Below are positions 8,641 to 20,409 of a stretch of DNA of 64,000 bases, piece after piece. A program made the translations under genes and the position numbers. Location: positions 8,404-72,403 of the forward strand of contig JAUYKA010000005.1 of assembly GCA_030698495.1 (NCBI GenBank), read 5' to 3'. Under the pieces are notes generated by a model that saw only the letters and a list, made by a program, of their open reading frames with translations, was not told the origin of the DNA and did not search any database. How positions within the stretch are numbered: the stretch's first letter is position 1; each line of letters opens with the position of its first letter. This DNA comes from a bacterium. Lineage in GTDB: Bacteria; Patescibacteriota; Andersenbacteria; UBA10190.

Positions 8641-9124
8641 AAGCCTTAGTATCGAGAATATAACACAAGACCGTATCAGCTGCCATAAATAAAATTAGGC
8701 CGCCGTTATCTGCCAAGTATCGCGATCCCCCCAGGAATCAATGCGACTCGACAAACAACGACGGCCAAAAGGGCCAAGATTCTCGCTTCGCCTTTTGACT
8801 TCACCGCGTGAAAACCGGACTGTCTCTTGGCATCCCTTTTACCTCCAACTTTAGGGTTTAGGGTGCACAGGCCAGGGGATCGCGGTACGGCTGTCGGGTG
8901 ACTTCCCCGACATTCAAACCGTTACCCGCGCGCCCGGGGGCCGCCGTCAGGAGGTCGTCGCGCAATAAGACCTTTTCTCGAGCTTCCCTCGCATACGCGC
9001 TCCTTCCTGCCAGGGCAACTAGATAGCCACCCGGCAAAGAGACAGAAAAAGAGAACAACTAACTACCCGTTTTATAGTACCTATTGACACACGAGTCAAT
9101 AGTCACATAAAAAATTAACGAGAA

Positions 9125-9230
9125 ACTCAAAATGAAAAACTCAAATTAACAAGATAAAACCAAAAACAGTTGCGGCAGTTTTGCCTTTTGCGTTGTTATT
9201 TTGAGTTTTTCGTTTTTAGTTTTTAGTTCT
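9125..9230 (-). terminator. Long AT-rich imperfect hairpin (AAAAC-repeat family) 3' of murJ
   Basis: Arms GAAAAACTCAAA...CAAAA and TTTTG...TTTGAGTTTTTC. Confidence 0.4.
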
Positions 9231-9232
9231 CT

Positions 9233-10849
9233 CTACTCCAACATCCCCCCAAACCTCGGCGTCTCCGTTCCCGCCTCTATCTTCGCCCGCCGCGGCAAAT
9301 ATTTCCGTATCGCCGCCAGCTCGTCGCACCTAAACAACAAACACATAGCCACATACGCCGCCACCCCGCCGCCGAAAGATACTAACAGCTGCAGCAATAC
9401 CCCCCAAAACCTGGTCATATCCACCATCGCCGCCACCGGATATTTTAGCGCCTGCAAAACCATTCCGGCCAGTACCGCCGCTACCGTTATCCTCGCCAAA
9501 CTAAACAGCACCTCGCGATCATTAAAACCGTTCAACTGCCAATGCAGCACGCCCAACAGCATCACTAAATTCAAAATCGCCGCCACCGAAAAAGCCAGCG
9601 CCAGCCCCTGCACGCCCATTCGCGGCGCCAACCATATTGCCAGCGCCACATTTACCACAATACTGATTAAAGAAACCGTCACCGGAATAATCGTGTTTTG
9701 CCTCACATAAAACGCTCGCGTCAACAACGGCACCGTCGCTTGCGCAAACAAACTGATCAGCAGCAACCCCAGTGTTTCGAAGGTTAGAATAGTATCTTCC
9801 CAGTCAAAAGCGCCGTCGCCAAACAGCACCCGAATCAACTGCGCGCGCAGCAAAAAGAAAAAGACCGCCACCGGCACCACTAGAAACAAAATATACCGAA
9901 AGGTTTTTGTCAGTGTATTCCTGAATTCTTTTTCCTGTCCTCGCGCTACTTGCTCCGCCAAGGTGGGAAAAGCCGCTTGGGCAAACGCCAAGCCGAATAC
10001 CCCTATCGGCAGACTCTGCACATTACTGGCCAAATGAAAAACCGAAATGGTTCCCGCCGCCAGCCCGGAACCGATTATCGTAACTAAAAACAAATTCACC
10101 TGTGTTCCGGCCAAACCGAATATACGCGGAATTATCATTCGCCGCAGTTTTTTTACATCAACGGAAGACCACTCCATTATCAGCCGCCAGCGCCAGCCGA
10201 CCGCGATCGCGCTCGGCAATTGCACCAACATATGTAGTGCTGCGCCCAGCACCACACCCCACCCCAGTCCGGATACTCCCATCATCGGCACCAGCCAAAC
10301 CACGCCGATAATTATACCGACGTTATAAAGAATCGGCGCCATCGCGTAAGCCACAAAACGCTTAAACGAATTCAGCACCCCGGAGAAAATAAAACTGATA
10401 CTCAATAATATCGGCTGCAGCGCCATCACTCGGGAAAGCATTATCGTCATTGCCAACTTGCCGCCGCTAAAACCCGGCGTTATCAAAGGCACAATCTTAT
10501 CGGCCAACATCACATATAAAATACTGAATATTATTACCACAATCAGGACTAAGTGAAGAACGGACAAGGAAAAATCAAACGCCTCTCTCTTTTTTTTATC
10601 TTTGCTATGAACCAGTTTCTCTGTGAACAAAGGAATAAACGCGGCCGACAAAGCTCCTACTACAACCAAATTAAAAATCAGGTCTGGTAAACGAAACGCC
10701 GCCACAAAAGCGTCAAACGTATCACCCGCGCCAAAGGTCGTGGTAAAAACCCTTTCTCTGATTAAACCCATGAAACGCGAACCTAAAGAGGCCGCTCCTA
10801 AAATCAGGGCCGCCGACACTACTCGACTGCTTACACCGTTTCTGGCCAT
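9233..10849 (-). CDS. murJ: Lipid II flippase MurJ/MviN family
   Basis: 538-aa polytopic membrane protein with the MurJ N-terminal signature (FMGLIRERVFTTTFGAGDTFDAF). Confidence 0.8.
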   Translation of the reverse strand: MARNGVSSRVVSAALILGAASLGSRFMGLIRERVFTTTFGAGDTFDAFVAAFRLPDLIFNLVVVGALSAAFIPLFTEKLVHSKDKKKREAFDFSLSVLHLVLIVVIIFSILYVMLADKIVPLITPGFSGGKLAMTIMLSRVMALQPILLSISFIFSGVLNSFKRFVAYAMAPILYNVGIIIGVVWLVPMMGVSGLGWGVVLGAALHMLVQLPSAIAVGWRWRLIMEWSSVDVKKLRRMIIPRIFGLAGTQVNLFLVTIIGSGLAAGTISVFHLASNVQSLPIGVFGLAFAQAAFPTLAEQVARGQEKEFRNTLTKTFRYILFLVVPVAVFFFLLRAQLIRVLFGDGAFDWEDTILTFETLGLLLISLFAQATVPLLTRAFYVRQNTIIPVTVSLISIVVNVALAIWLAPRMGVQGLALAFSVAAILNLVMLLGVLHWQLNGFNDREVLFSLARITVAAVLAGMVLQALKYPVAAMVDMTRFWGVLLQLLVSFGGGVAAYVAMCLLFRCDELAAIRKYLPRRAKIEAGTETPRFGGMLE

Positions 10850-10890
10850 ATTTTTTCCTTGTTATATCTTAGCCCCCCAAATACAGATTG

Positions 10891-12843
10891 CTATTTACTC
10901 TCCAGCACCGCACCGATCAGCCTATCTTCCCTCAACTCGCCGCGATACGTAAAACGATTATAATCTGTTTGCGTAATTCCGTCACTTGGCACTATATAAC
11001 CCACCCTAACGTTTTCCGGCAGTCTTATCTCCGTTCGTAATTGCGTACGCGTATCTCCCGGCTGCTTAGCCACATACACCGAGTAACGCCCCGCTTTATT
11101 AATTAATCCTGGCATCTGCACACCCTGGGGAATAATATACCGATACAAAGCCACGGACGTCGCTCCCGGTTGCGTCACTATCCAGTTGGCAAAATACAAA
11201 TAGCCCGCTTCTTCACCTATCAACGTACCATTTTCCCCCTGCCGTTGCGCCTGCTGCCAGGCAGCCACGTCGGCATCAGCCGACAACCCCTCAATCTCCT
11301 CTGGCTCAACCAGCTGTGGTACTTGCCCGGCCGGAGTAAAACCTCGCACCTCCTCAAGCACGGCGCCTTTCGGAACAAACACCCGCTGATATATGACATT
11401 ATCTTTAAAGGCCGGGTCTTCTCCTTCCCGATAATTCCCCGCGATCTTCTCCTCCGGTCCGCGATGCGTCCGCCTGATTGTTACCGTTGCCTCCACCTCC
11501 CCGTTTTCCCTGACCTCACTGCGATAATCTATCTCCTGCTCCACAAACTGATCGCTTTTATGCCCGCCGATATTGGCGTTTATCACACTCAAAAAGCCCG
11601 GTTCCGCCTGCGGCCACGTACCGCTGCCGCCCATCTCATCCAGCCTCTGCTGCTCGGCACCGTCTTTCATGTAAACCAGCAGTTGCTTCTCTTGAATCAT
11701 TTTTGCCAGCGCCGACATTGCCTGTAGATTATTCTGTCCCGCTCCCGTAAAAACCTTATTCATCAGCAGCGGAGTTAAATCAGCCAAAAATTGTTTCGGC
11801 TTATTCACTTCCCGGTCATATGAATAAGTCACCTGGTCTTGCGTTAAAGCCACAAAATTATCGGCGCCCACCGTCACACCGTACGCCGGCACTTCAATCG
11901 GTCCCGTAATTTTGAGCAGCTCTTTTACCACCTCCGGCGTCATAGCAATAACTCCGTCCACCGTCGGACCGCCTTCTTTCTCAAAAAAGTCCGCCGCCTT
12001 AGCCGCGCTCACACTGTAATCCGCAAACCAATTTACATCGCGCAAATACCACCGATTCGTTATGCGCCTTAGCGGCTCCGGCGGCGCAATATAGTCTTTC
12101 ATCTGTCCGTCCGGATCATACACCGTTTGCACATCAACTGTTTCAATTATCCCCCGATCCACATTAACCAAGCCAATACTGCCGATAAATCCTCCAGTCG
12201 GCCGCTGTTCGTTGTTGTTTTCAAATAAAATCAGATACTGCCGCTCGCGCTTACTACCCAACAAAGTTAACAGCCAATCTCCCTGGTTAACCAATAAATC
12301 CAACGGTTTTTTTATCTTCGCTACCGCGTTTTTCGTTTCACTCACCTGCTGTTTCAACTCATTAGGCAAAAACACGTCGTTGACTGTGTTCAAATTCGCG
12401 TCCGCCGCGTCTATCTCCGCCGCCGCCGCTCTCATCTCCTCCAGAGAATCCGACAACGCTGACATAAAATTACTCCCCTCCGCATCGACACCATTGACCA
12501 GCGGCTCGGCTCCGCGGGCAAAATGTTGTCCGGCACGGGCAATAGCTTCGGCGGCACGTAATATTCTGTCCCCGGATTTTACCGTTCCCGTTAAATCAAC
12601 AACCTCCAACACAGTTTTGGCTGTCGCTAACGCCCCCGCCAACTCACTCCTGGCTTCAGCCAACAACTGTTCCGCTTCTCCAAACTTTGTCTCGCCTTCC
12701 GCAAAATTTTGATCGGCCAGCGCCGTCTGTCCCATCGCCACTCTCTCATACGCTTCCTTAGCGTTACTAGCCACCGAACCGAGCGCTGCGTAACCCCTGC
12801 CTAAAGCCTGCAAATTCCACAGCAACCCCCAAGACGCTGACAA
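10891..12843 (-). CDS. DUF4012 domain cell-envelope protein (C-terminal 650 aa; TTG start is probably artificial, see frameshift finding)
   Basis: YLILFENNNEQRPTGGFIGS is a DUF4012 hallmark. A TM helix (ANLILLLVGLSASWGLLW) is encoded immediately upstream in the same frame, without an ATG. Confidence 0.6.
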   Translation of the reverse strand: MSASWGLLWNLQALGRGYAALGSVASNAKEAYERVAMGQTALADQNFAEGETKFGEAEQLLAEARSELAGALATAKTVLEVVDLTGTVKSGDRILRAAEAIARAGQHFARGAEPLVNGVDAEGSNFMSALSDSLEEMRAAAAEIDAADANLNTVNDVFLPNELKQQVSETKNAVAKIKKPLDLLVNQGDWLLTLLGSKRERQYLILFENNNEQRPTGGFIGSIGLVNVDRGIIETVDVQTVYDPDGQMKDYIAPPEPLRRITNRWYLRDVNWFADYSVSAAKAADFFEKEGGPTVDGVIAMTPEVVKELLKITGPIEVPAYGVTVGADNFVALTQDQVTYSYDREVNKPKQFLADLTPLLMNKVFTGAGQNNLQAMSALAKMIQEKQLLVYMKDGAEQQRLDEMGGSGTWPQAEPGFLSVINANIGGHKSDQFVEQEIDYRSEVRENGEVEATVTIRRTHRGPEEKIAGNYREGEDPAFKDNVIYQRVFVPKGAVLEEVRGFTPAGQVPQLVEPEEIEGLSADADVAAWQQAQRQGENGTLIGEEAGYLYFANWIVTQPGATSVALYRYIIPQGVQMPGLINKAGRYSVYVAKQPGDTRTQLRTEIRLPENVRVGYIVPSDGITQTDYNRFTYRGELREDRLIGAVLESK

Positions 12844-12860
12844 ACCAACCAGCAGTAAAA

Positions 12861-13805
12861 TCAGGTTAGCGGTATAAAATACTGTTTTTTTTTACCCCGC
12901 GCCGCCTCGTCGCAAGAGAGGCGAAGTGGGTGTTTGCCCCGCGCCGCTTGATTGTAATCGGACCTCTGCGGGGTTTCACTCAACCCGACTTGATTGTCTT
13001 CAGTCATCCCGCCCGCGTCAACAAATTCCGGCGTCGGCTTATAACCCAAGACTGGTTTATGTTTCATTGGACTATGTTTTTTCCCAGGCAGCCGCCCAAA
13101 AGGCCAGATACTGAAATGCAATGGTAAGGCAAATCGTCGCCTCGGCTCCTCGATTGTTGCCGACGCTAAGATTGGTTCCGTCATTTCCAAAGTAGCCGGA
13201 GCCGAACTTTTTTCTTGCGACCAAGAATATGACACGTCTCTTTCTCCGCTCACCAACAGACCTGTAGGGATCTTTTCTTTTTTCCTGCTCGGCCAATTCG
13301 CCACTCCCGGTCGCTTAATTTTCTTGCGCGTCATATTTTCTGCCTTTACCGGCACTGTCCGCGCCACAGTCACTTTCGTCGTCGGTGCGGTTCTCCTCTT
13401 GACCGCCAAACCCACATATGGCGGTAATGTCATTTTTAGCGTCGGTTTCGACTGGCGATAAACATCTCCGGTGTGATATTCCACGCCCCTATTCACCTGC
13501 TTGGGCACTTTCAATCTGCCGTAAGCGGGTGCCGTACTCGGCAATTCGGAATATATCGGTCTTCTCTCAAAACGAACAATTGCCTCGCGTTGTTTTTTCT
13601 GCCGCCGCATACGCGTCATTTCCTCCCTCACTGGCCGGCGCAGTCTGGCCGGCAGACGCCAATCAATTTGTACCACTTTCGGCCCTGCTTGGTTCATCGT
13701 CTGACGCTTTCTGCTTTCCGCGCCCACTAAACGACGCCGGCGGTCTTTCCCTCCGCGCTCTTCGTGATTGTATGAAGGATTATTGGGTGCAACTACATCC
13801 AGCAC
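12861..13805 (-). pseudogene. Basic Pro/Arg/Lys-rich 314-aa ORF, probably the N-terminal cytoplasmic region of the DUF4012 gene split off by a 1-nt frameshift in a T9/A9 homopolymer (12885-12893)
   Basis: The ORF ends GKKKQYFIPLT* reading through AAAAAAAAA. One additional A fuses it in-frame to KKTVFYTANLILLLVGLSASW..., the start of the DUF4012 ORF. Confidence 0.5.
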
Positions 13806-13857
13806 ACTCCTATTGTAGAACCAAACTCGTTCTTAAGCCAGCCTAAAACAAACCGGA

Positions 13858-14988
13858 TCATCGTTTTCCTGTTGCCTCTTCATACACCTTAAGATGTTGT
13901 TCCACCGCCTTATCCCACTTAAAGAATTGCGCCCGCGCTCTCCCTTCATCCGTTAATCGCGCCCGCAATCTATCGTCGTTCATAACCCGCTCCACCCCGG
14001 CCGCTATATCAACCACGCTTTCCGGATTGACATAAATCGCCGCCTCCCCCATTACTTCAGGCAAACTGGACACGTTAGATGTAACCACCGGCGCGCCGCA
14101 GGCCGCCGCTTCCAGTACCGGCAAACCAAACCCTTCGTACAAACTGGGCCAAACAAAACACGCCGCTTCTGCGTACATGGCCGGTAACAATTTCTGCGGC
14201 ACATACCCGGGAAAAATTACTTTTTGCTCCAGACTCAATGTCCGTGTCAACTTTAAAACTTTTCCCCAACCCGCCTTGGGCCGTCCGGTAATCACTAATT
14301 TATAATCGAATCCTTTTTTAATCAGTAAACCAAACGCCCTGATTAAACGATCCAAATTCTTGTGGCTCATCCACACCCCCACAAATAGCAAATACGGTTT
14401 GTTCGTACCAATAAGCAGCCTGGCCTTCTGCCTCTCCTCTCCGGTCACCGGCCGCCAAAATGACTCGTCCACACCTTCATATATCACTGTAGTTTTATCC
14501 GACATCTGAAGCGGCAAAAAGTTCAGCGCTTCTTTTGTCGCTTGCGACACGGCGATTATCGCCCTTGCGCCCTCTATCGCTCTCTTAAATACATACTCGT
14601 ACGCTATTTGCTGTTTCAAACCCTGGCGCCGCTGGCCAGGAAAAATAAACCGTGTCACATCATGCACGGTTACCACATACGGTCCCCGAAAAAATACCGG
14701 CACGTTAAAATGAGTAAAATGCCACAAATCCGCCCGCACTCCCGCGAGCTGCCGCCAGAACACAGTCTGTTCCCGCCAGGAATAATACGACCCATCCACT
14801 AATTTCATCTCAACTTTCCCTTTCGGAAACTCCGCGGCAAATCGCTTAAACGCCTCAGCGTCCGGCGCGCTTACCAGCGCCACATACTTATGATTATCCT
14901 CACAGCGCGCCAGACCCGCGATGATATTTCTGGTATATCTCCCGATCCCCGCCCAGCTAAAAGCTCTCGCGTCAATTGCTATTCGCAT
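13858..14988 (-). CDS. Glycosyltransferase family 4 (GT-B, RfaB-like)
   Basis: C-terminal GT1/GT4 E-x7-E region (EGFGLPVLEAAACGAPVV). Confidence 0.8.
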   Translation of the reverse strand: MRIAIDARAFSWAGIGRYTRNIIAGLARCEDNHKYVALVSAPDAEAFKRFAAEFPKGKVEMKLVDGSYYSWREQTVFWRQLAGVRADLWHFTHFNVPVFFRGPYVVTVHDVTRFIFPGQRRQGLKQQIAYEYVFKRAIEGARAIIAVSQATKEALNFLPLQMSDKTTVIYEGVDESFWRPVTGEERQKARLLIGTNKPYLLFVGVWMSHKNLDRLIRAFGLLIKKGFDYKLVITGRPKAGWGKVLKLTRTLSLEQKVIFPGYVPQKLLPAMYAEAACFVWPSLYEGFGLPVLEAAACGAPVVTSNVSSLPEVMGEAAIYVNPESVVDIAAGVERVMNDDRLRARLTDEGRARAQFFKWDKAVEQHLKVYEEATGKR

Positions 14989-15053
14989 ACGTTATAGATT
15001 ATACATAATTTTTAATCTTCAGTTCGCAAACAAGGAGTTTGGAAATTTCTAAG

Positions 15054-16181
15054 TCACTCCAAGACGCTCTCCATAACTTCTATCGTCTCCCGTGCCGCGT
15101 TCCCCCAAGAATATCTATTCCGTATTTCCTCCCTTTGCTGACTGGTAACTTCCGGCAAATCATTCAACAGCTCGCGCAACACCACGGCAATTTCCGCCGC
15201 GTTGGCGGGGTCCACTAAAGTCGCCCAGTCGCCGACTACCTCCGGCAGTGATGAGTTAAAAGAAGTAACCACCGGCGTTCCCGCCAGCAACGCTTCCAGC
15301 GGTGGAAAACCAAACCCTTCGTAAAAACTGGGGTAAACAAACAAATCCGCTCCGGCATACAAACACTGCTTATCTTCTTCTTCCACAAAGCCCATCACCT
15401 TAATTCGCGCGCGCGCCGATGACTGCCTGACCGCCGCTTGAATCGGCCCCATTAACCAGCCCCTGCTGCCGGCAATAACCAGGTCTTGCTCGACACTATC
15501 GGCAATCGCGGTATACGAACGCACTACGCCAATAATATTTTTACGCGGTTCAAAAGTACCTAAAAACAGCACATATCTACGAGGCAATCCGTATTTTTCC
15601 CGCACCCGGTCAATCTCTTCGCGGGAAGGCGGCTCTTTCCAATCCGGCGTACCGGAATGAATGACCGTCACCTTAGCCGCGTCCAAACCGTAAATATCCG
15701 TTACGTCCCGGGCGGCGGCGGCGGAAACCGCGATTATGTGATCGGCATTCCTCAATAATTTTCTCGGCTGAACATATCGATGCCACAGACGCCTCTGTCG
15801 GGAATAAAATTCCGGAAAGCGCTCAAAAGATAAATCATGCACCGTCACCACGTATGGCGTCCTGGCCGACACCGGCAGGGGACGCGCGTTTGGCACAAAA
15901 AAACAATCCGCCGTGATCAAACCATCCCAGCGCGGCCAATTCAGTACATACTGACTGGCGTTGAATAGTTTATTGGGATATTTAAATACTGCCCTCTCAA
16001 TATCTTCGCCTAAATACGGCAACTCAACCGGCGACCAGGCGTTGTAGAAAACTTCGTATTTATTATCTCCGGGCACCTCCAGCATAGCCCTGATAATTTG
16101 CGAAGTGTACTCTTCGACTCCGCTGTGCCTGCCTTCCATCAGCGACCGAACGTCAATCGCTATTTTATGTCCCCCCTTCAT
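15054..16181 (-). CDS. Glycosyltransferase family 4
   Basis: EGFGFPPLEALLAGTPVV motif. Confidence 0.8.
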   Translation of the reverse strand: MKGGHKIAIDVRSLMEGRHSGVEEYTSQIIRAMLEVPGDNKYEVFYNAWSPVELPYLGEDIERAVFKYPNKLFNASQYVLNWPRWDGLITADCFFVPNARPLPVSARTPYVVTVHDLSFERFPEFYSRQRRLWHRYVQPRKLLRNADHIIAVSAAAARDVTDIYGLDAAKVTVIHSGTPDWKEPPSREEIDRVREKYGLPRRYVLFLGTFEPRKNIIGVVRSYTAIADSVEQDLVIAGSRGWLMGPIQAAVRQSSARARIKVMGFVEEEDKQCLYAGADLFVYPSFYEGFGFPPLEALLAGTPVVTSFNSSLPEVVGDWATLVDPANAAEIAVVLRELLNDLPEVTSQQREEIRNRYSWGNAARETIEVMESVLE

Positions 16182-16212
16182 AAGGAGGAAATTAAGAGGG
16201 GGTAAATAATTT

Positions 16213-16839
16213 TCACGCTTCTTCTTGATTCAGACTTTTCCATAATAACGCCCCGTTAACCAATATCAACAACGTCATAACAAACGTCGCTACCGTTATT
16301 ACCGGCACGCTTACCGCGCTTTTCCCTTCCCACGGCGTACTGGTCACCACCCTGAACTTCAGTGCCGGTATCCCTTCCTGCTGATATATATCAACATTAT
16401 TAGCCATTACCTCTTCTAGTCCCTTCGCCAGCAGACTGGCCTTTTCTTCGTCTCGGTCACGCACCGTAACCTGAATCAATTGCGGCGCTGTTTTTTCCGC
16501 CGTCACACTGCGCGCCAAGATTTTCGGATCTTCGCCGGGCAAATCCAAACCGGCCGACTCGTATGCCGCTACCACCGTCTCCGGAGTTGTTGCCCACTTG
16601 GCCAAAGAAGCCGCGAATAAATCCGTCGCCTGCAACGCGTAATAACCGTCAAAGGTGTATTCCGAAGGATTCTCGCGTTCACTTAAAGAAACCAAATAAG
16701 AATAATGCACTTCGTATGTTGGCCCGGAGCGCTCCGCCAGCGCATATGCCACCGCGGCGACGGCTAAACTCGCGATTAACAGCCACGGCATCATCCGCCA
16801 TAAATACTCCCGATAATATGACAAGCTCCCCCGGTTCAT
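16213..16839 (-). CDS. Wzz-like polysaccharide chain-length determinant (PCP) protein
   Basis: N- and C-terminal TM helices flanking a periplasmic domain. The likely start is MNRGSLSYY, whose ATG overlaps the upstream GT stop codon as ATGA (translational coupling). Confidence 0.55.
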   Translation of the reverse strand: MNRGSLSYYREYLWRMMPWLLIASLAVAAVAYALAERSGPTYEVHYSYLVSLSERENPSEYTFDGYYALQATDLFAASLAKWATTPETVVAAYESAGLDLPGEDPKILARSVTAEKTAPQLIQVTVRDRDEEKASLLAKGLEEVMANNVDIYQQEGIPALKFRVVTSTPWEGKSAVSVPVITVATFVMTLLILVNGALLWKSLNQEEA

Positions 16840-17951
16840 AATCTTACCGAATTTTCCTTTTGGTAAACCATCCATTGATTCTGCACCTCTTCCCGAATAG
16901 CGCGCAAGAAATTCTGCCGGCGATATTTCTCTGCGTGCCGCCGAATCAACTCCGGATCGAAATTCTTTTGTTCAAGCCTCAATATCGCCCCCATTAAACT
17001 TGTCACCGTCTGTTCTTCAAAAAAAACGCCCGTCTCATCCGCCACCACCGTTTCCAGCGCTCCTCCCCCCGCGTACGCCACCGTGGGCTTTCCCGCCGCG
17101 GCCGCCTCCAGCGGCGTTATGCCAAAATCTTCCTCCTGCGGAAAAAGCAGAGCCCGGCATCCCGCGTATAATTGCGGCAACTGTTCATCTGGCACAAACC
17201 CCAGAAATTCCACGTACTCGCCCCCGCGCTTACGCAGGGATTCATAGTCTTGTCCTGTTCCCGCAATTTTAAGCGGACGCTTCAAACGCTCGCATGCTTC
17301 TATCGCCAATTCCACTCGTTTATATGGCACCAGTCTTGATACCACCAAATAATACCCCCCCGTCTCTTTACTGACCTTAAAATCATCAACATCCACCGGC
17401 GGCGGTACCACACGCGAATCACGATGATAATATTTCTTTATCCGACGCGCCACCACCTGCGACAGTGTCAGATAGCTATCAACCCTTTGCGCCGCGTAAT
17501 AATCCCACAAACGCATGTAAGACAAACCTAAGGGCGCTAGTGGCTTAAATAAAGCTAATCGGGAAAATTCACGCACGTACCGGTGCGAATCATCCCACAA
17601 ATATCTTGTCGGCGTAAAACAATAAGATAGATGCATAGTCGACGCTCCGGTAATAATTCCCTTGGTAAAACTATGCGTATCCGATAACACCACATCGTAT
17701 TCGCTAAAATCAAACTGCTCCACCGCCAGCGGCATCAGCAGGGGAAAAAAACGATGGTGACGCTTGGCGCCCGGCACGCGCTGCAGGAAAGACACCCTGA
17801 TCCTCGCCTCATCGAAACCGGCCGGCATCACCCGCCCGTTATGCAACAATGTGAACACGGGAGCATTCTCAAATGCCTCCATTAGCGCCAACAAGACTCT
17901 CTCCGCCCCGCCAAACTGGGTTAAATAGTCATGGACAATAGCTACGCGCAT
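16836..17951 (-). CDS. Glycosyltransferase family 4
   Basis: GT-B fold; the N-terminal MRVAIVHDYLTQFGGAERV is typical of GT4. Confidence 0.8.
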   Translation of the reverse strand: MRVAIVHDYLTQFGGAERVLLALMEAFENAPVFTLLHNGRVMPAGFDEARIRVSFLQRVPGAKRHHRFFPLLMPLAVEQFDFSEYDVVLSDTHSFTKGIITGASTMHLSYCFTPTRYLWDDSHRYVREFSRLALFKPLAPLGLSYMRLWDYYAAQRVDSYLTLSQVVARRIKKYYHRDSRVVPPPVDVDDFKVSKETGGYYLVVSRLVPYKRVELAIEACERLKRPLKIAGTGQDYESLRKRGGEYVEFLGFVPDEQLPQLYAGCRALLFPQEEDFGITPLEAAAAGKPTVAYAGGGALETVVADETGVFFEEQTVTSLMGAILRLEQKNFDPELIRRHAEKYRRQNFLRAIREEVQNQWMVYQKENSVRL

Positions 17952-17995
17952 CCAGATATATTAACGTAAGGTTGGCGACAACGCCAACCCCGCCA

Positions 17996-18110
17996 TAAAC
18001 TTAAAACTAAAAACTAAAAACTAAAAACTGCACCATAAAAAGAAAAAAGAACCGCGTAAAATCGTTCTTTTTCGTTTTTCACTTTACGTTTTGCGTTTTC
18101 TTATACCGCA
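17996..18110 (-). terminator. AAAAC-repeat hairpin family, 3' of the WbaP-like gene
   Basis: (AAAACT)x4 arm, central GC hairpin, GTTTTTCACTTTACGTTTTGCG arm. Confidence 0.4.
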
Positions 18111-19555
18111 TTCTTATCCTTCAAAAGAAGCACCAAAGTTTTAAACAATAAAATTATATCCAAAAACAAAGACCACCCTTCCACGTACGCAATATCCAAA
18201 TTAGCTTCCTGATCAAACGAAAGACCGGCGTTTCCGTTTACCTGCGCCATCCCCGACATGCCCGGCTTAATGGTAAACAGCTTTTGGTGATGCTTGCCGT
18301 AACGGCTCACCTCATTCGGCAAATGCGGCCGCGGTCCGAACAAGCTCATTTCCCCTCGCGCCACATTAATCAATTGCGGCAACTCATCAATCCGCCATTT
18401 TCTTATAAATCTCCCCACCCGCGTCACCCGCGGGTCCATTTTCATTTTAAAAAGAGGCCCCGACCTCTCATTCGTTTCCTGCCGCAGTTTTTCTTCGTAT
18501 TGCCTCGCTTTTTCTCCACCGTAATTATTCCCCGTACAAAACTCCTGCTTCATACTGCGGAATTTATAAATATCAAACGGCTTCTTATTCCGCCCAATCC
18601 TGGTTTGACTGTATAAAATCGGTCCGGGCGAATCCATTCTTATAGCCACCGCCGCGGCCATGTAAATCGGTGCTAAAATGACCGCCCCCACCAACACGCC
18701 GAACAAATCCATCAGCCGCTTGGCCACCCGACCCCAGCCGTCCAATGGCGTGCGCTGCAATTCCATCACCGGCACTCCCCCAATCTGGCGAAATTGAACA
18801 TTGGCCGCGTGCGCCTCAAACGTATTGGGCACATATTTATAATCAATCTTGTATTTATCGCAAAAATCCAACAGCATCAAATTATCTTCATCCGTTAATG
18901 TCGGCGCTGTTTGAATAACCTCATCCAGCCCCGACCGCTGATACAACTCCTCCATTTCCTCCCAGCGCACCTTTTCCGACATTCCCACCACCACATAGCC
19001 AAGCTGGGGTTTTCGCCGAAAAACCCGCTCTAACTGATCGCCATATTTTCCGTTGCCTATCAAGGCCACGCGGTGGACCCCCGTGCCGCGACGCAACAAC
19101 CATTTCTGCGCGTACCTGACCCCGAACCTCCCCGCCGTCACAAAAATAATGGCGAACACATAAGCCGCCATCACAATGAATCGAGATTGAAACAAAGCCG
19201 CACTTAAGAAAACATAAACCAGCACTATCATCACCCCGATTGATATACTGGAAAAAATATGTGTTAACTCATCCAGCGGACGACGTGTCGCTCGCATCAC
19301 ATAAAGTCCCTGCATGGCGAAAATCACAATCGTTACTACCGCCACCACGCTTATCAACTGCAGATACTCAACCAGCGGCAAATCCAGCTGAAAAACAGCC
19401 GGTCTTATCTCCTGCGCCGTCGGACTCACCCGCAAATAATAAGCCAGCAACCCGGCCGCTATCATCGCGACGAAATCAATGGGCACTAAAATCGCCCCGA
19501 AAAATAACTCGGATCTTTTCATACTCTTGTATTCAACCAGCGACCATACGACCAA
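18101..19555 (-). CDS. Undecaprenyl-phosphate hexose-1-phosphate transferase (WbaP/CpsE-type initiating sugar transferase)
   Basis: Several N-terminal TM helices; C-terminal bacterial sugar transferase domain (DELPQLINV, KPGMSGMAQVNG). Confidence 0.8.
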   Translation of the reverse strand: MVVWSLVEYKSMKRSELFFGAILVPIDFVAMIAAGLLAYYLRVSPTAQEIRPAVFQLDLPLVEYLQLISVVAVVTIVIFAMQGLYVMRATRRPLDELTHIFSSISIGVMIVLVYVFLSAALFQSRFIVMAAYVFAIIFVTAGRFGVRYAQKWLLRRGTGVHRVALIGNGKYGDQLERVFRRKPQLGYVVVGMSEKVRWEEMEELYQRSGLDEVIQTAPTLTDEDNLMLLDFCDKYKIDYKYVPNTFEAHAANVQFRQIGGVPVMELQRTPLDGWGRVAKRLMDLFGVLVGAVILAPIYMAAAVAIRMDSPGPILYSQTRIGRNKKPFDIYKFRSMKQEFCTGNNYGGEKARQYEEKLRQETNERSGPLFKMKMDPRVTRVGRFIRKWRIDELPQLINVARGEMSLFGPRPHLPNEVSRYGKHHQKLFTIKPGMSGMAQVNGNAGLSFDQEANLDIAYVEGWSLFLDIILLFKTLVLLLKDKNAV

Positions 19556-19823
19556 TCACCTAAATTGTCAATACAATATGACACTGTCTTATATTGTAAT
19601 GCCGCTACCACCTAAACCGCAACGGTTATTTAACGTGCCTATCACGGCGGGTGACGCGCTGGGGGGTCCCCCGCCGAGCGCCTGCACCCGCCTAAATTTT
19701 GCCGCAGCAAAATATTAGGCGGGGAAGCCGTCGGGCGGGGGCTCGAGCGCGGCAGGACCCGCCGGAGATGAACAATATTAGCCCCAGTCGCCTAAACGTC
19801 GTTTGACAAACCCCACATTTCGT

Positions 19824-19837: not shown

Positions 19838-20350
19838 GAAGACAGGTGAATGGCCGCTCTTTGTTCAAAGTTCGAGGCAACCCCTTAGGGGTTTACCCTG
19901 AGCTTGTCGAAGGGAGGAAAGTCCGGACACCTTATTGATCTTTTTCAATAAACGGGTGGCAGATAACGTCTGCCCGGAGCAATCCGAGGGACCGATACAA
20001 AATGGATAGATAGACACACGTGTATATCTATTTAATCGGCCAAGAGTGCAACAGAAACATACCGCTTTCACCCGCCGAAGCTTTACGCGAAGGCGGGCTA
20101 GTCCACTTCTTGTGGAGAGTAAGGTTGAAATCGTGAGGCCCGCCTTCGCGCGGGATACCCCTCGCTTCGGCGAGGCAAAGTAAGAGCTCACGCGGCCGCG
20201 CGGCAACGCGCGGACGGGGCAAGCCCCACCCGGTGCAACCTCAAGCAATTCCGCCTTAAAACGGAATAGGTAGAGGGCAAGAGGCGTACGGCGACGTGCG
20301 TCCCAGATAGATGGCCATTCCAGACAGAATCCGGCTTACAGCCTGTCTTC
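19838..20350 (+). ncRNA. rnpB: RNase P RNA (bacterial type A-like), about 513 nt with insertions
   Basis: P4 strands GGAGGAAAGTCCGGACACC (5') and ACAGAATCCGGCTTAC (3'). P1 pairs GAAGACAGG with CCTGTCTTC. Conserved blocks AGTGCAACAGAAAC and GGTAAGGTTGAAA are present. The region has no ORF and is GC-rich. Confidence 0.8.
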
Positions 20351-20409
20351 AAAAAAACCGCCCAGATTTTTGTCTGAGCTGTTTTTTTATGCCAACCAAA
20401 TAGATAATT

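Follow-up and report, generated by a model that had tools for sequence, protein, structure and literature searches.

The 64,000-nucleotide window analyzed here (contig JAUYKA010000005.1 of assembly GCA_030698495.1, positions 8,404 to 72,403) comes from a bacterium of the Andersenbacteria lineage UBA10190 and contains a glycan-biosynthesis locus that includes GT4 genes, a Bac_transf gene, and MurJ. Within this locus lies a gene for a DUF4012 protein that is divided into two open reading frames (ORFs) at a run of nine adenines (A9) on the coding minus strand, which appears as T9 on the plus strand at 12885-12893. DUF4012 is known from genomic context only; it occurs in exopolysaccharide and capsular polysaccharide (EPS/CPS) clusters and is enriched in bacteria of the Candidate Phyla Radiation (CPR) and in Gram-positive bacteria (PMC6744442). 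An earlier note on this DNA had placed a 1-nt frameshift within the run and the gene within a glycan locus, and both observations hold. Here, we describe a computational analysis of this run, of its occurrence in related lineages, and of the ways in which it may be decoded.

Organization of the split gene

The upstream ORF (12861-13805, minus strand, 314 aa) enters the run in its 0 frame as GAC GAG GCG GCG CGG GGT AAA AAA AAA CAG TAT TTT ATA CCG CTA ACC TGA, with seven sense codons after the A9 and a stop as the eighth codon. The DUF4012 frame reads the same strand as GGG TAA AAA AAA ACA GTA TTT TAT ACC GCT AAC CTG ATT TTA CTG CTG GTT GGT TTG..., and its translation from the TAA stop onwards, KKTVFYTANLILLLVGLSASWGLLW, forms a transmembrane (TM) helix that is followed by a region of ~650 aa containing DUF4012. 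This downstream frame, which the earlier note had labeled +1, is in fact offset by -1 from the frame upstream of it (one base 5'), the same as after a 1-nt insertion. The addition of one A yields a single ORF of 971 aa, in agreement with the gene of about 970 aa that had been predicted, and the claim that the DUF4012 frame holds no ATG ahead of the helix is likewise correct, its first canonical start being the TTG at 12843, inside the TM helix. At the other end of the gene, the window N-terminus VLDVVAPNN (GTG start) is homologous to the MLDVVPP start of relatives.

The A9 is the sole homopolymer of at least 9 nt within the window, where one A9/T9 match is observed against a mean of 6.3 expected from dinucleotide-preserving shuffles. 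Such runs are avoided in this genome, and the single survivor sits at the frame junction. A lone A9 per 64 kb is not improbable by itself; the statistical weight of this one arises because the same run recurs at the same site in 20 lineages, as described below.

A Pfam search of the N-terminal ORF matched no family, and its AlphaFold2 (AF2) model is mostly disordered (mean predicted local distance difference test score, pLDDT, of 53) with one helix at residues 59-77. The product of standard decoding is thus predicted to be soluble, basic, and mostly disordered, with the C-terminus ...GKKKQYFIPLT. The downstream part matches PF13196 (DUF4012) with an E value of 2.2e-31 and a score of 109.7 bits (cut-off, 28) over profile positions 3-142 of 144, and its AF2 model (pLDDT 82; predicted template modeling score, pTM, 0.77) consists of a TM helix that begins at residue 3, a long helical bundle, and alpha/beta and beta-rich domains. 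In the fused protein, the junction is predicted to read ...GKKK-TVFYTANL..., within a peptide that contains EAARGKKKTVFYTANL.

Comparison of the DUF4012 core with the Protein Data Bank by Foldseek returned weak, repeated matches to LytR-Cps2A-Psr (LCP) structures, with E values from 3.6e-5 (3pe5) to 4e-3; the other LCP structures matched were 3tep, 2xxq, 4de8, and 3nxh, at 10-14% identity and a target TM-score of 0.3-0.44. LCP glycopolymer ligases share with the predicted fused protein a cytoplasmic tail, one TM helix, and an extracytoplasmic alpha/beta domain, and the window gene likewise lies in a locus for glycan synthesis with a flippase. Unlike these ligases, the DUF4012 part has no Pfam LCP match at E up to 0.1, and both its identity and its TM-score are low. 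The weak resemblance agrees with the topology and with the conserved glycan locus, but it is only a lead to the function of DUF4012 and does not assign DUF4012 to the LCP family.

Homology indicates that the two ORFs are halves of one conserved protein, because fused relatives exist. A search with the repaired protein retrieved 12 fused homologues of 797-958 aa that were 43-51% identical to it, at up to 100% query coverage, and those among the 12 with a named source were labeled Candidatus Andersenbacteria; across all searches, fused homologues measured 797-966 aa. Alignment of the N-terminal region revealed the conserved motifs WKLPARLRRP, AIVRFERRPIY, HTGDVY, PPY, ERDVPY, RRRFALPLHFSIWP, and PKRRFALPLHFSIWP, and in the fused homologues this motif-bearing part leads without a break into the TM helix and DUF4012 domain. 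The layout envisaged in the earlier note, a disordered cytoplasmic region followed by a TM helix and an extracytoplasmic DUF4012 domain, accordingly agrees with both the fused orthologues and the PF13196 match. The possibility that the upstream ORF is spurious and lacks conservation is contradicted by the presence of these motifs in relatives; 22 N-terminal columns are invariant among 34 split homologues. The features of the site are collected in Table 1.

Table 1. Features at and around the A9 run of the DUF4012 gene in the window.
Feature	Coordinates	Strand	Remarks
0-frame ORF, N-terminal cytoplasmic region, 314 aa	12864..13805	-	GTG start
Predicted imperfect RNA hairpin, ends 2 nt before the run	12896..12930	-	-19.2 kcal/mol, z = -1.65; not conserved in relatives
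T (12894) plus first two A's, a -1-frame TAA; final stop ahead of the open DUF4012 frame	12892..12894	-	T conserved
A9 run, read AAA AAA AAA (KKK) in the 0 frame; proposed slippage/frameshift site	12885..12893	-	Run conserved in 20 lineages
0-frame stop TGA, 7 sense codons past the run	12861..12863	-	Seen in the sequence
-1-frame codons for TVFYTANLILLLVGLSASWGLLW, single TM/signal-anchor helix	12817..12885	-	Reachable from the upstream ORF only by a -1 shift or an extra A
-1-frame extracytoplasmic coding region; helical bundle, then DUF4012 alpha/beta and beta-rich domains	10891..12884	-	Stop at 10891-10893
Pfam DUF4012 core	~11833-12246	-	PF13196 match, residues 216-353 of the 666-aa translation

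The sequence just upstream of the tract contains a direct repeat, GCGGCGCGGGG(C/T)AAA, at 12933-12947 and 12891-12905 of the minus strand. The copies lie 42 nt apart, both encode AARGK, and the second leads into the A9 tract. The repeat falls within a lineage-specific insertion of ~45 aa (HSPMKHKPVLGY...LSCDEAARG), which is located between a conserved FSIWP motif and the tract and is absent from fused homologues. The repeat may be what remains of a local duplication by which the tract was regenerated or moved.

The run in related lineages

A scan of one genome per species yielded 33 related loci, designated here by L and a number, to which a scan of metagenomes added L038. In six of the 33, the N-terminal and DUF4012 segments lie in different frames, and the offset is always -1; the frame change in L014 spans a run of N's and was excluded as a scaffold-gap artefact. 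L007, L008, L009, L029, and L034 each possess a T followed by A9 directly 5' of the TM helix. A search with the N-terminal ORF retrieved 35 short proteins of 190-336 aa from Logan, NCBI, JGI, and ENA assemblies, all of which end in KKK and a short tail, and the DNA of seven of these cases contained T and A9 (A10 in L057) in phase 0, with a -1 shift needed in each. The DNA-verified split lineages number 13; every one requires -1 and has a T before the run, which is A9 in 12 and A10 in one and lies in phase 0 in 12. Two of them, L038 (GGT AAA AAA AAA CTA TAG) and L058 (GCT AAA AAA AAA CGG TAA), leave at most 15 nt from the -1-frame TAA to the 0-frame stop, and therefore the shift site would have to be the run itself.

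The split extends well into public sequence collections. Comparison of an N-terminal-domain profile with 1.84 billion representatives identified 59 proteins, of which only 11 are both long and fused, with one additional fused protein cut short by a contig end. Short gene calls that cover the N-terminal part alone number 64, and in 60 of them exactly KKK and a further 1-18 residues (median, 7) form the end; of the remaining four, two are fragments and two end in VKKN..., an ending that is consistent with the phase variant observed in L009. Pairwise identity among 57 split N-terminal proteins ranges from 26 to 88% (median, 42%), and the split is common to entire sub-clades whose members are 60-88% identical. 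Seven further DNA-verified lineages keep the run in frame, L003, L006, L031, L061, and L062 with A9 and L002 and L063 with A10, and in these the products of adding or removing one A both stop within 0-13 codons.

Some fused relatives carry a decayed-looking tract of the form GGGT-A6-G ~100 nt upstream of the TM helix, as in L010 at 747-752 (GGGTAAAAAAGATC), and relatives such as L011, L017, and L040 have no run. These sequences suggest that, in genes already in frame, an interruption may remove the run. Many of the related loci (L005-L009, L012, L016-L022, and others) are third-party annotation (TPA) records titled 'uncultured Candidatus Saccharibacteria', while their closest named relatives are Andersenbacteria; the titles probably reflect generic or mislabeled CPR taxonomy.

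Gene callers annotate the split gene as two ORFs and select internal TTG, ATG, or GTG starts for the DUF4012 part, as would be expected if the locus held two independent genes or a true pseudogene. These starts lie inside or after the TM helix, and a product initiated there would lose its signal anchor. Neither ATG, GTG, nor TTG occurs in the -1 frame between the run, or its TAA, and the helix, in the window or in 12 of the 13 split lineages, where no stop interrupts the -1 frame over the up to ~30 codons that separate run and helix; independent initiation of DUF4012 was rejected on this ground. In at least 13 DNA-verified lineages and ~60 protein clusters, both halves are conserved at full length with no stops, and the lesion always falls at the same run. 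We therefore regard a pseudogene, which the earlier note had entertained, or a pair of genes with an internal start as highly improbable. The comparison with orthologues that the note had called for has a mixed outcome: fused orthologues do exist, but many orthologues are split, always at the same conserved run. The split orthologues argue for programmed recoding rather than two genes, because the run is always the same and the second half has no start codon.

The length of the run is stable among independent samples, as judged from consensus sequences. A Logan contig that was assembled independently from raw reads (SRR26726065; seen in two samples) is 100% identical to window positions 8784-19676, a span of 10,893 bp that includes the A9. 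Likewise, L038, L052, L053, and L054 present an identical A9 in at least four samples, among them one strain with four single-nucleotide polymorphisms (SNPs), and L006 and L037 also share an identical A9. These data bear on the suspicion that the true sequence is A10 and that one A was lost from the consensus. Homopolymers are the commonest sites of indel errors, and this A9 is the longest run in the window. Beyond the identical Logan assembly, however, the same out-of-frame run recurs in unrelated assemblies from many projects and pipelines (contig names in the k141_, NODE_, and scaffold styles; JGI, ENA, NCBI, and Logan), A10 is resolved correctly in L002, L063, and L057, and a uniform miscount cannot bring both the in-frame and the out-of-frame A9 genes into frame. 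A sequencing or assembly error is left with almost no probability.

Slipped-strand mispairing at replication could, alternatively, make the run a contingency locus that alternates between A9 (OFF) and A10 (ON). A homopolymer in a gene of an envelope polysaccharide locus is the classical setting for such phase variation, the lineages include A9 as well as A10 alleles and genes in as well as out of frame, and poly-A/T is slippery for DNA polymerase too (PMC3711429). This explanation is nevertheless very unlikely. Seventeen of the 20 lineages carry A9, in in-frame and out-of-frame genes alike; each of the 13 OFF-looking states is -1, with no +1 state and no run of A8, A11, or longer seen; consensus length is equal across independent samples and in the SNP-bearing strain; and sub-clades at 60-88% identity share the split, which makes the 'OFF' consensus long-lasting with both halves intact. 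The earlier note's proposal of a phase-variable site is accordingly disfavored, although phase variation may make a minor contribution alongside recoding.

Decoding of the run

The run appears to be constrained at the level of nucleotides. Its length over the 20 DNA-verified lineages is A9 in 17 and A10 in three, and the run-bearing genes of 11 lineages that were compared share only ~47-60% identity across the DUF4012 domain. The window and 297,555 bp of distinct related loci (together ~362 kb) contain 11 homopolymers of at least 9 nt, all of which lie at this site. Long ORFs of these sequences contain 43 KKK tripeptides, which are encoded by AAA AAA AAA in 16 of 16 cases at this site as opposed to none of 27 elsewhere, AAA representing 57% of the Lys codons in the same sequences. 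In 19 of the 20 lineages a T precedes the run, at the third position of Gly, Ile, Arg, Ala, Ser, Pro, and Leu codons, and none of 60 proteins has E, Q, K, M, or W directly ahead of KKK (P ~2.5e-6). The conserved T creates a TAA in the -1 frame, even where the run is in frame. By these comparisons the run is under nucleotide-level selection, beyond the expectation from codon usage. Furthermore, length and flank are constant while the relation of the frames varies, the opposite of the pattern that a constraint on the protein alone, with a drifting run, would produce.

We conclude that the U-A9 sequence is, in all likelihood, a real, conserved, programmed recoding site. Standard decoding would produce the soluble, basic, largely disordered cytoplasmic protein that ends seven codons past the run. 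In a fraction of expression events, the frame would move to -1 at the run and join the N-terminal region to the TM helix and the extracytoplasmic DUF4012 domain of ~650 aa, generating the 971-aa protein. The likeliest mechanism would be slippage of RNA polymerase on a 9-bp rA:dT hybrid, with the addition of one non-templated A and an mRNA that reads A10, and a ribosomal -1 slip on A AAA AAA would be a contributor or an alternative. In the sister lineages with an in-frame A9, slippage would instead truncate the protein and give rise to the short isoform, for which Thermus dnaX is a precedent. It appears that two isoforms are retained as the output of the family, while the default one varies.

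The preference for polymerase slippage rests in part on the length of the run. In bacterial genomes, slippage leads to selection against A/T runs at a length of nine, and Thermus dnaX (A9) and Shigella mxiE use 9-nt runs (PMC1088944). Extra nucleotides result from slippage on runs of nine (PMC5009743), and therefore slippage would match the uniform need for one additional A. Two length variants of an envelope protein arise from a poly-A run in Citrobacter tssM (PMC4256274). In E. coli reporters for poly-A -1 clusters, the shift amounted to 10% with 7A, ~40% with 9A, and 63% with 11A, measurements that did not resolve the level at which the shift occurs (PMC3711429). Transcriptional slippage, one of the options raised in the earlier note, is the one that the evidence from these comparisons supports.

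Efficient programmed ribosomal frameshifting (PRF) would require no change in the mRNA, since two tRNA-Lys could slip back on a faithful A9 transcript without any slippage of the polymerase. The A AAA AAA heptamer lies in the 0-frame phase in 12 of 13 split genes, the sequence in L009 is the classical A AAA AAG, and the shift is -1 in every one of the 13. Among frameshift heptamers, A_AAA_AAA and T_AAA_AAA recur in gene clusters of prokaryotes (PMC3711429), and iterated AAA codons can likewise allow ribosomes to slide (PMC4363877). Seven A's are enough for such a site, yet nine or ten are kept in 20 of 20 lineages, in-frame genes included, and nine coincides with the known threshold for polymerase slippage (PMC1088944). 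Moreover, among the 20 tract holders there is no conserved upstream Shine-Dalgarno (SD)-like element, downstream hairpin, or pseudoknot. Slippage is thus favored over efficient -1 PRF both because no conserved SD-like or hairpin stimulator accompanies the run and because nine A's are conserved though seven suffice, and we consider purely ribosomal frameshifting unlikely.

Candidate stimulators were rejected individually. An upstream hairpin is present in the window, L009, and L038, but it occurs in 4 of the 20 tract holders, compared with 25% at random positions; an SD-like stimulator occurs in 4 of 20 against a background of 11.5%, which is unconvincing. Downstream, fold z-scores are scattered from -3.0 to +1.5, and no structure is shared. 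Penno et al. reportedly described, in 2015, a stem-loop as a possible stimulator of slippage. Two lineages have structures that are not common to the others: a perfect 9-bp hairpin in L009 at 2102-2122 (ACCCGTTCT-AC-AGAACGGGT), which ends exactly at the A9, and a long-range stem in L029 at ~282-353 (CCAAGCTGG...CCAGCTTGG), which is followed by T6 just past the 0-frame stop and resembles a terminator. An alternative genetic code in which UGA is a sense codon was also rejected, since the post-run stops of relatives include TAA and TAG and recoding of UGA would leave their break in place.

Several observations weigh against slippage or against a programmed site. No role in polymerase slippage has been established for the conserved 5' T, which matches no known requirement of either slippage or -1 PRF. 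The signal is not absolutely uniform, in that the split gene of L057 has A10 and the in-frame gene of L063 lacks the T. About two-thirds of the orthologues in the species-level scan have no run, and a two-isoform output would therefore not be essential to the family. With a run in the correct phase for a -1 slippery heptamer and with every shift -1, ribosomal frameshifting fits about equally well, and the protein sequence cannot separate the two mechanisms because both give ...GKKK-TVFY.... Minority A10 genotypes could exist beneath the A9 consensus. Finally, all source organisms are uncultivated metagenome-assembled genomes (MAGs), and the occurrence, level, and efficiency of slippage are inferred from sequence. 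Slippage is nonetheless favored as the probable main contributor.

We tentatively extend this reading to a tunable isoform switch in an Andersenbacteria envelope gene, a proposal that is possible though rather doubtful. Polymerase slippage would set the ratio of a soluble cytoplasmic isoform to a membrane-anchored LCP-like enzyme, and this ratio may follow nucleoside triphosphate (NTP) pools, elongation rate, or Lys-tRNA. The default isoform would flip repeatedly while the run is held at 9 nt, and the short isoform would have a function of its own, for example as a cytoplasmic regulator or as a competitor for the partners of the N-terminal motifs.

The surrounding locus and comparison with known systems

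The order of three GT4 genes, the N-terminal ORF, DUF4012, and MurJ recurs in relatives, and the Bac_transf gene belongs to the window's own locus. Every related locus also contains, between GT4 genes, an ORF of ~200-220 aa that has no Pfam match and overlaps its neighbors by ~4-40 nt (window, 16213-16875 on the minus strand; L052, 554-1189; L055, 681-1307; L056, 608-1219). This ORF is an uncharacterized conserved member of the glycan cluster. Nearly all long ORFs of the window lie on the minus strand and form a long co-directional array. Just past the glycan locus, on the strand opposite to most genes, lies a bacterial RNase P class A RNA (19838-20354, plus strand; 170.6 bits), which at 517 nt against a model of 367 positions probably carries sizeable insertions. 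ARAGORN found zero tRNA genes in the window.

The class of mechanism proposed here is already well known from dnaX, mxiE, tssM, insertion sequence (IS) elements, and a Mg-chelatase cluster. The closest parallels include Thermus thermophilus dnaX (tau/gamma, A9) and the Chlorobi-type two-ORF A10 dnaX, in which a cellular gene with A9 or A10 specifies two N-terminally coincident products (PMC1088944; PMC3711429), alternative-frame stops lie near the run, and in-frame A9 and two-ORF A10 members coexist within one family. The dnaX product is a clamp loader rather than an envelope protein, and slippage is proven for dnaX, whereas the case made here is a sequence-based one. In addition, out-of-frame genes are the commoner among the run-bearing DUF4012 genes, and the longer form gains a TM helix and an extracytoplasmic domain, such that the predicted isoforms differ in compartment. 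In tssM from the T6SS (type VI secretion system) of Citrobacter rodentium and Yersinia pseudotuberculosis, the gene for an envelope-spanning membrane protein is broken at a poly-A run, added A's lead to truncated and full-length forms, and both forms and their ratio matter (PMC4256274). That run is A11 and occurs in a few enterobacterial strains, in contrast to an A9 with a conserved T in lineages that are ~47-60% identical and a short form that has no membrane anchor.

Shigella flexneri mxiE (T9) and the IS orfAB genes resemble the window gene in that the longer functional product needs one non-templated nucleotide at a 9-nt run and standard decoding gives the short product (PMC1088944; PMC5009743); they encode a regulator and transposases, respectively, and not a chromosomal envelope protein in a CPR glycan locus. 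The -1 poly-A cluster of Mg-chelatase (Antonov et al. 2013) provides an example of a -1 frameshift on A-runs that is conserved across genera in a cellular gene (PMC3711429), although its runs vary from 7 to 11, as opposed to nine in 17 of 20 lineages here, and the protein family and taxa are different.

In endosymbionts, poly(A) frameshifts are rescued by slippage, and some of them are evolutionarily maintained. Such out-of-frame poly(A) tracts in Buchnera and Blochmannia lie, as here, in otherwise intact genes of reduced genomes, and they have been cited among cases of slippage (PMC5009743). In those AT-rich genomes, many genes and many long runs are involved and the rescue is adventitious, whereas runs are avoided in the window and a single site is conserved. 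This avoidance (one observed against 6.3 expected), together with the single conserved site, would therefore argue for a programmed site and not for adventitious rescue.

Our literature search, whose coverage of subscription journals was thin, found no report of frameshifting or slippage in connection with CPR, Patescibacteria, Parcubacteria, or DUF4012. The traits that appear unusual on comparative grounds are a length fixed at nine, the conserved 5' T, the coexistence of in-frame and out-of-frame alleles, and isoforms that would reside in different compartments. If the isoform-switch reading is true, the site would represent the first description of recoding in CPR bacteria. Chromosomal cellular genes seldom show conserved recoding, and this would be a deeply conserved case in an uncultivated radiation with reduced genomes.

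The finding also bears on annotation, since dozens of public Andersenbacteria assemblies carry the gene as two ORFs (~60 N-terminal-only clusters). Treatment as one recoded gene would give the correct product and topology, and the gene would no longer be scored as a pseudogene or as a MAG error. The in-frame and out-of-frame A9 alleles constitute a natural 'experiment', and the conserved 5' T may report on the determinants of slippage. For DUF4012 itself, the putative two-isoform design, the cytoplasmic linear motifs, and the weak LCP-like fold would lead to testable hypotheses on how surface glycopolymers are built or regulated in these bacteria.

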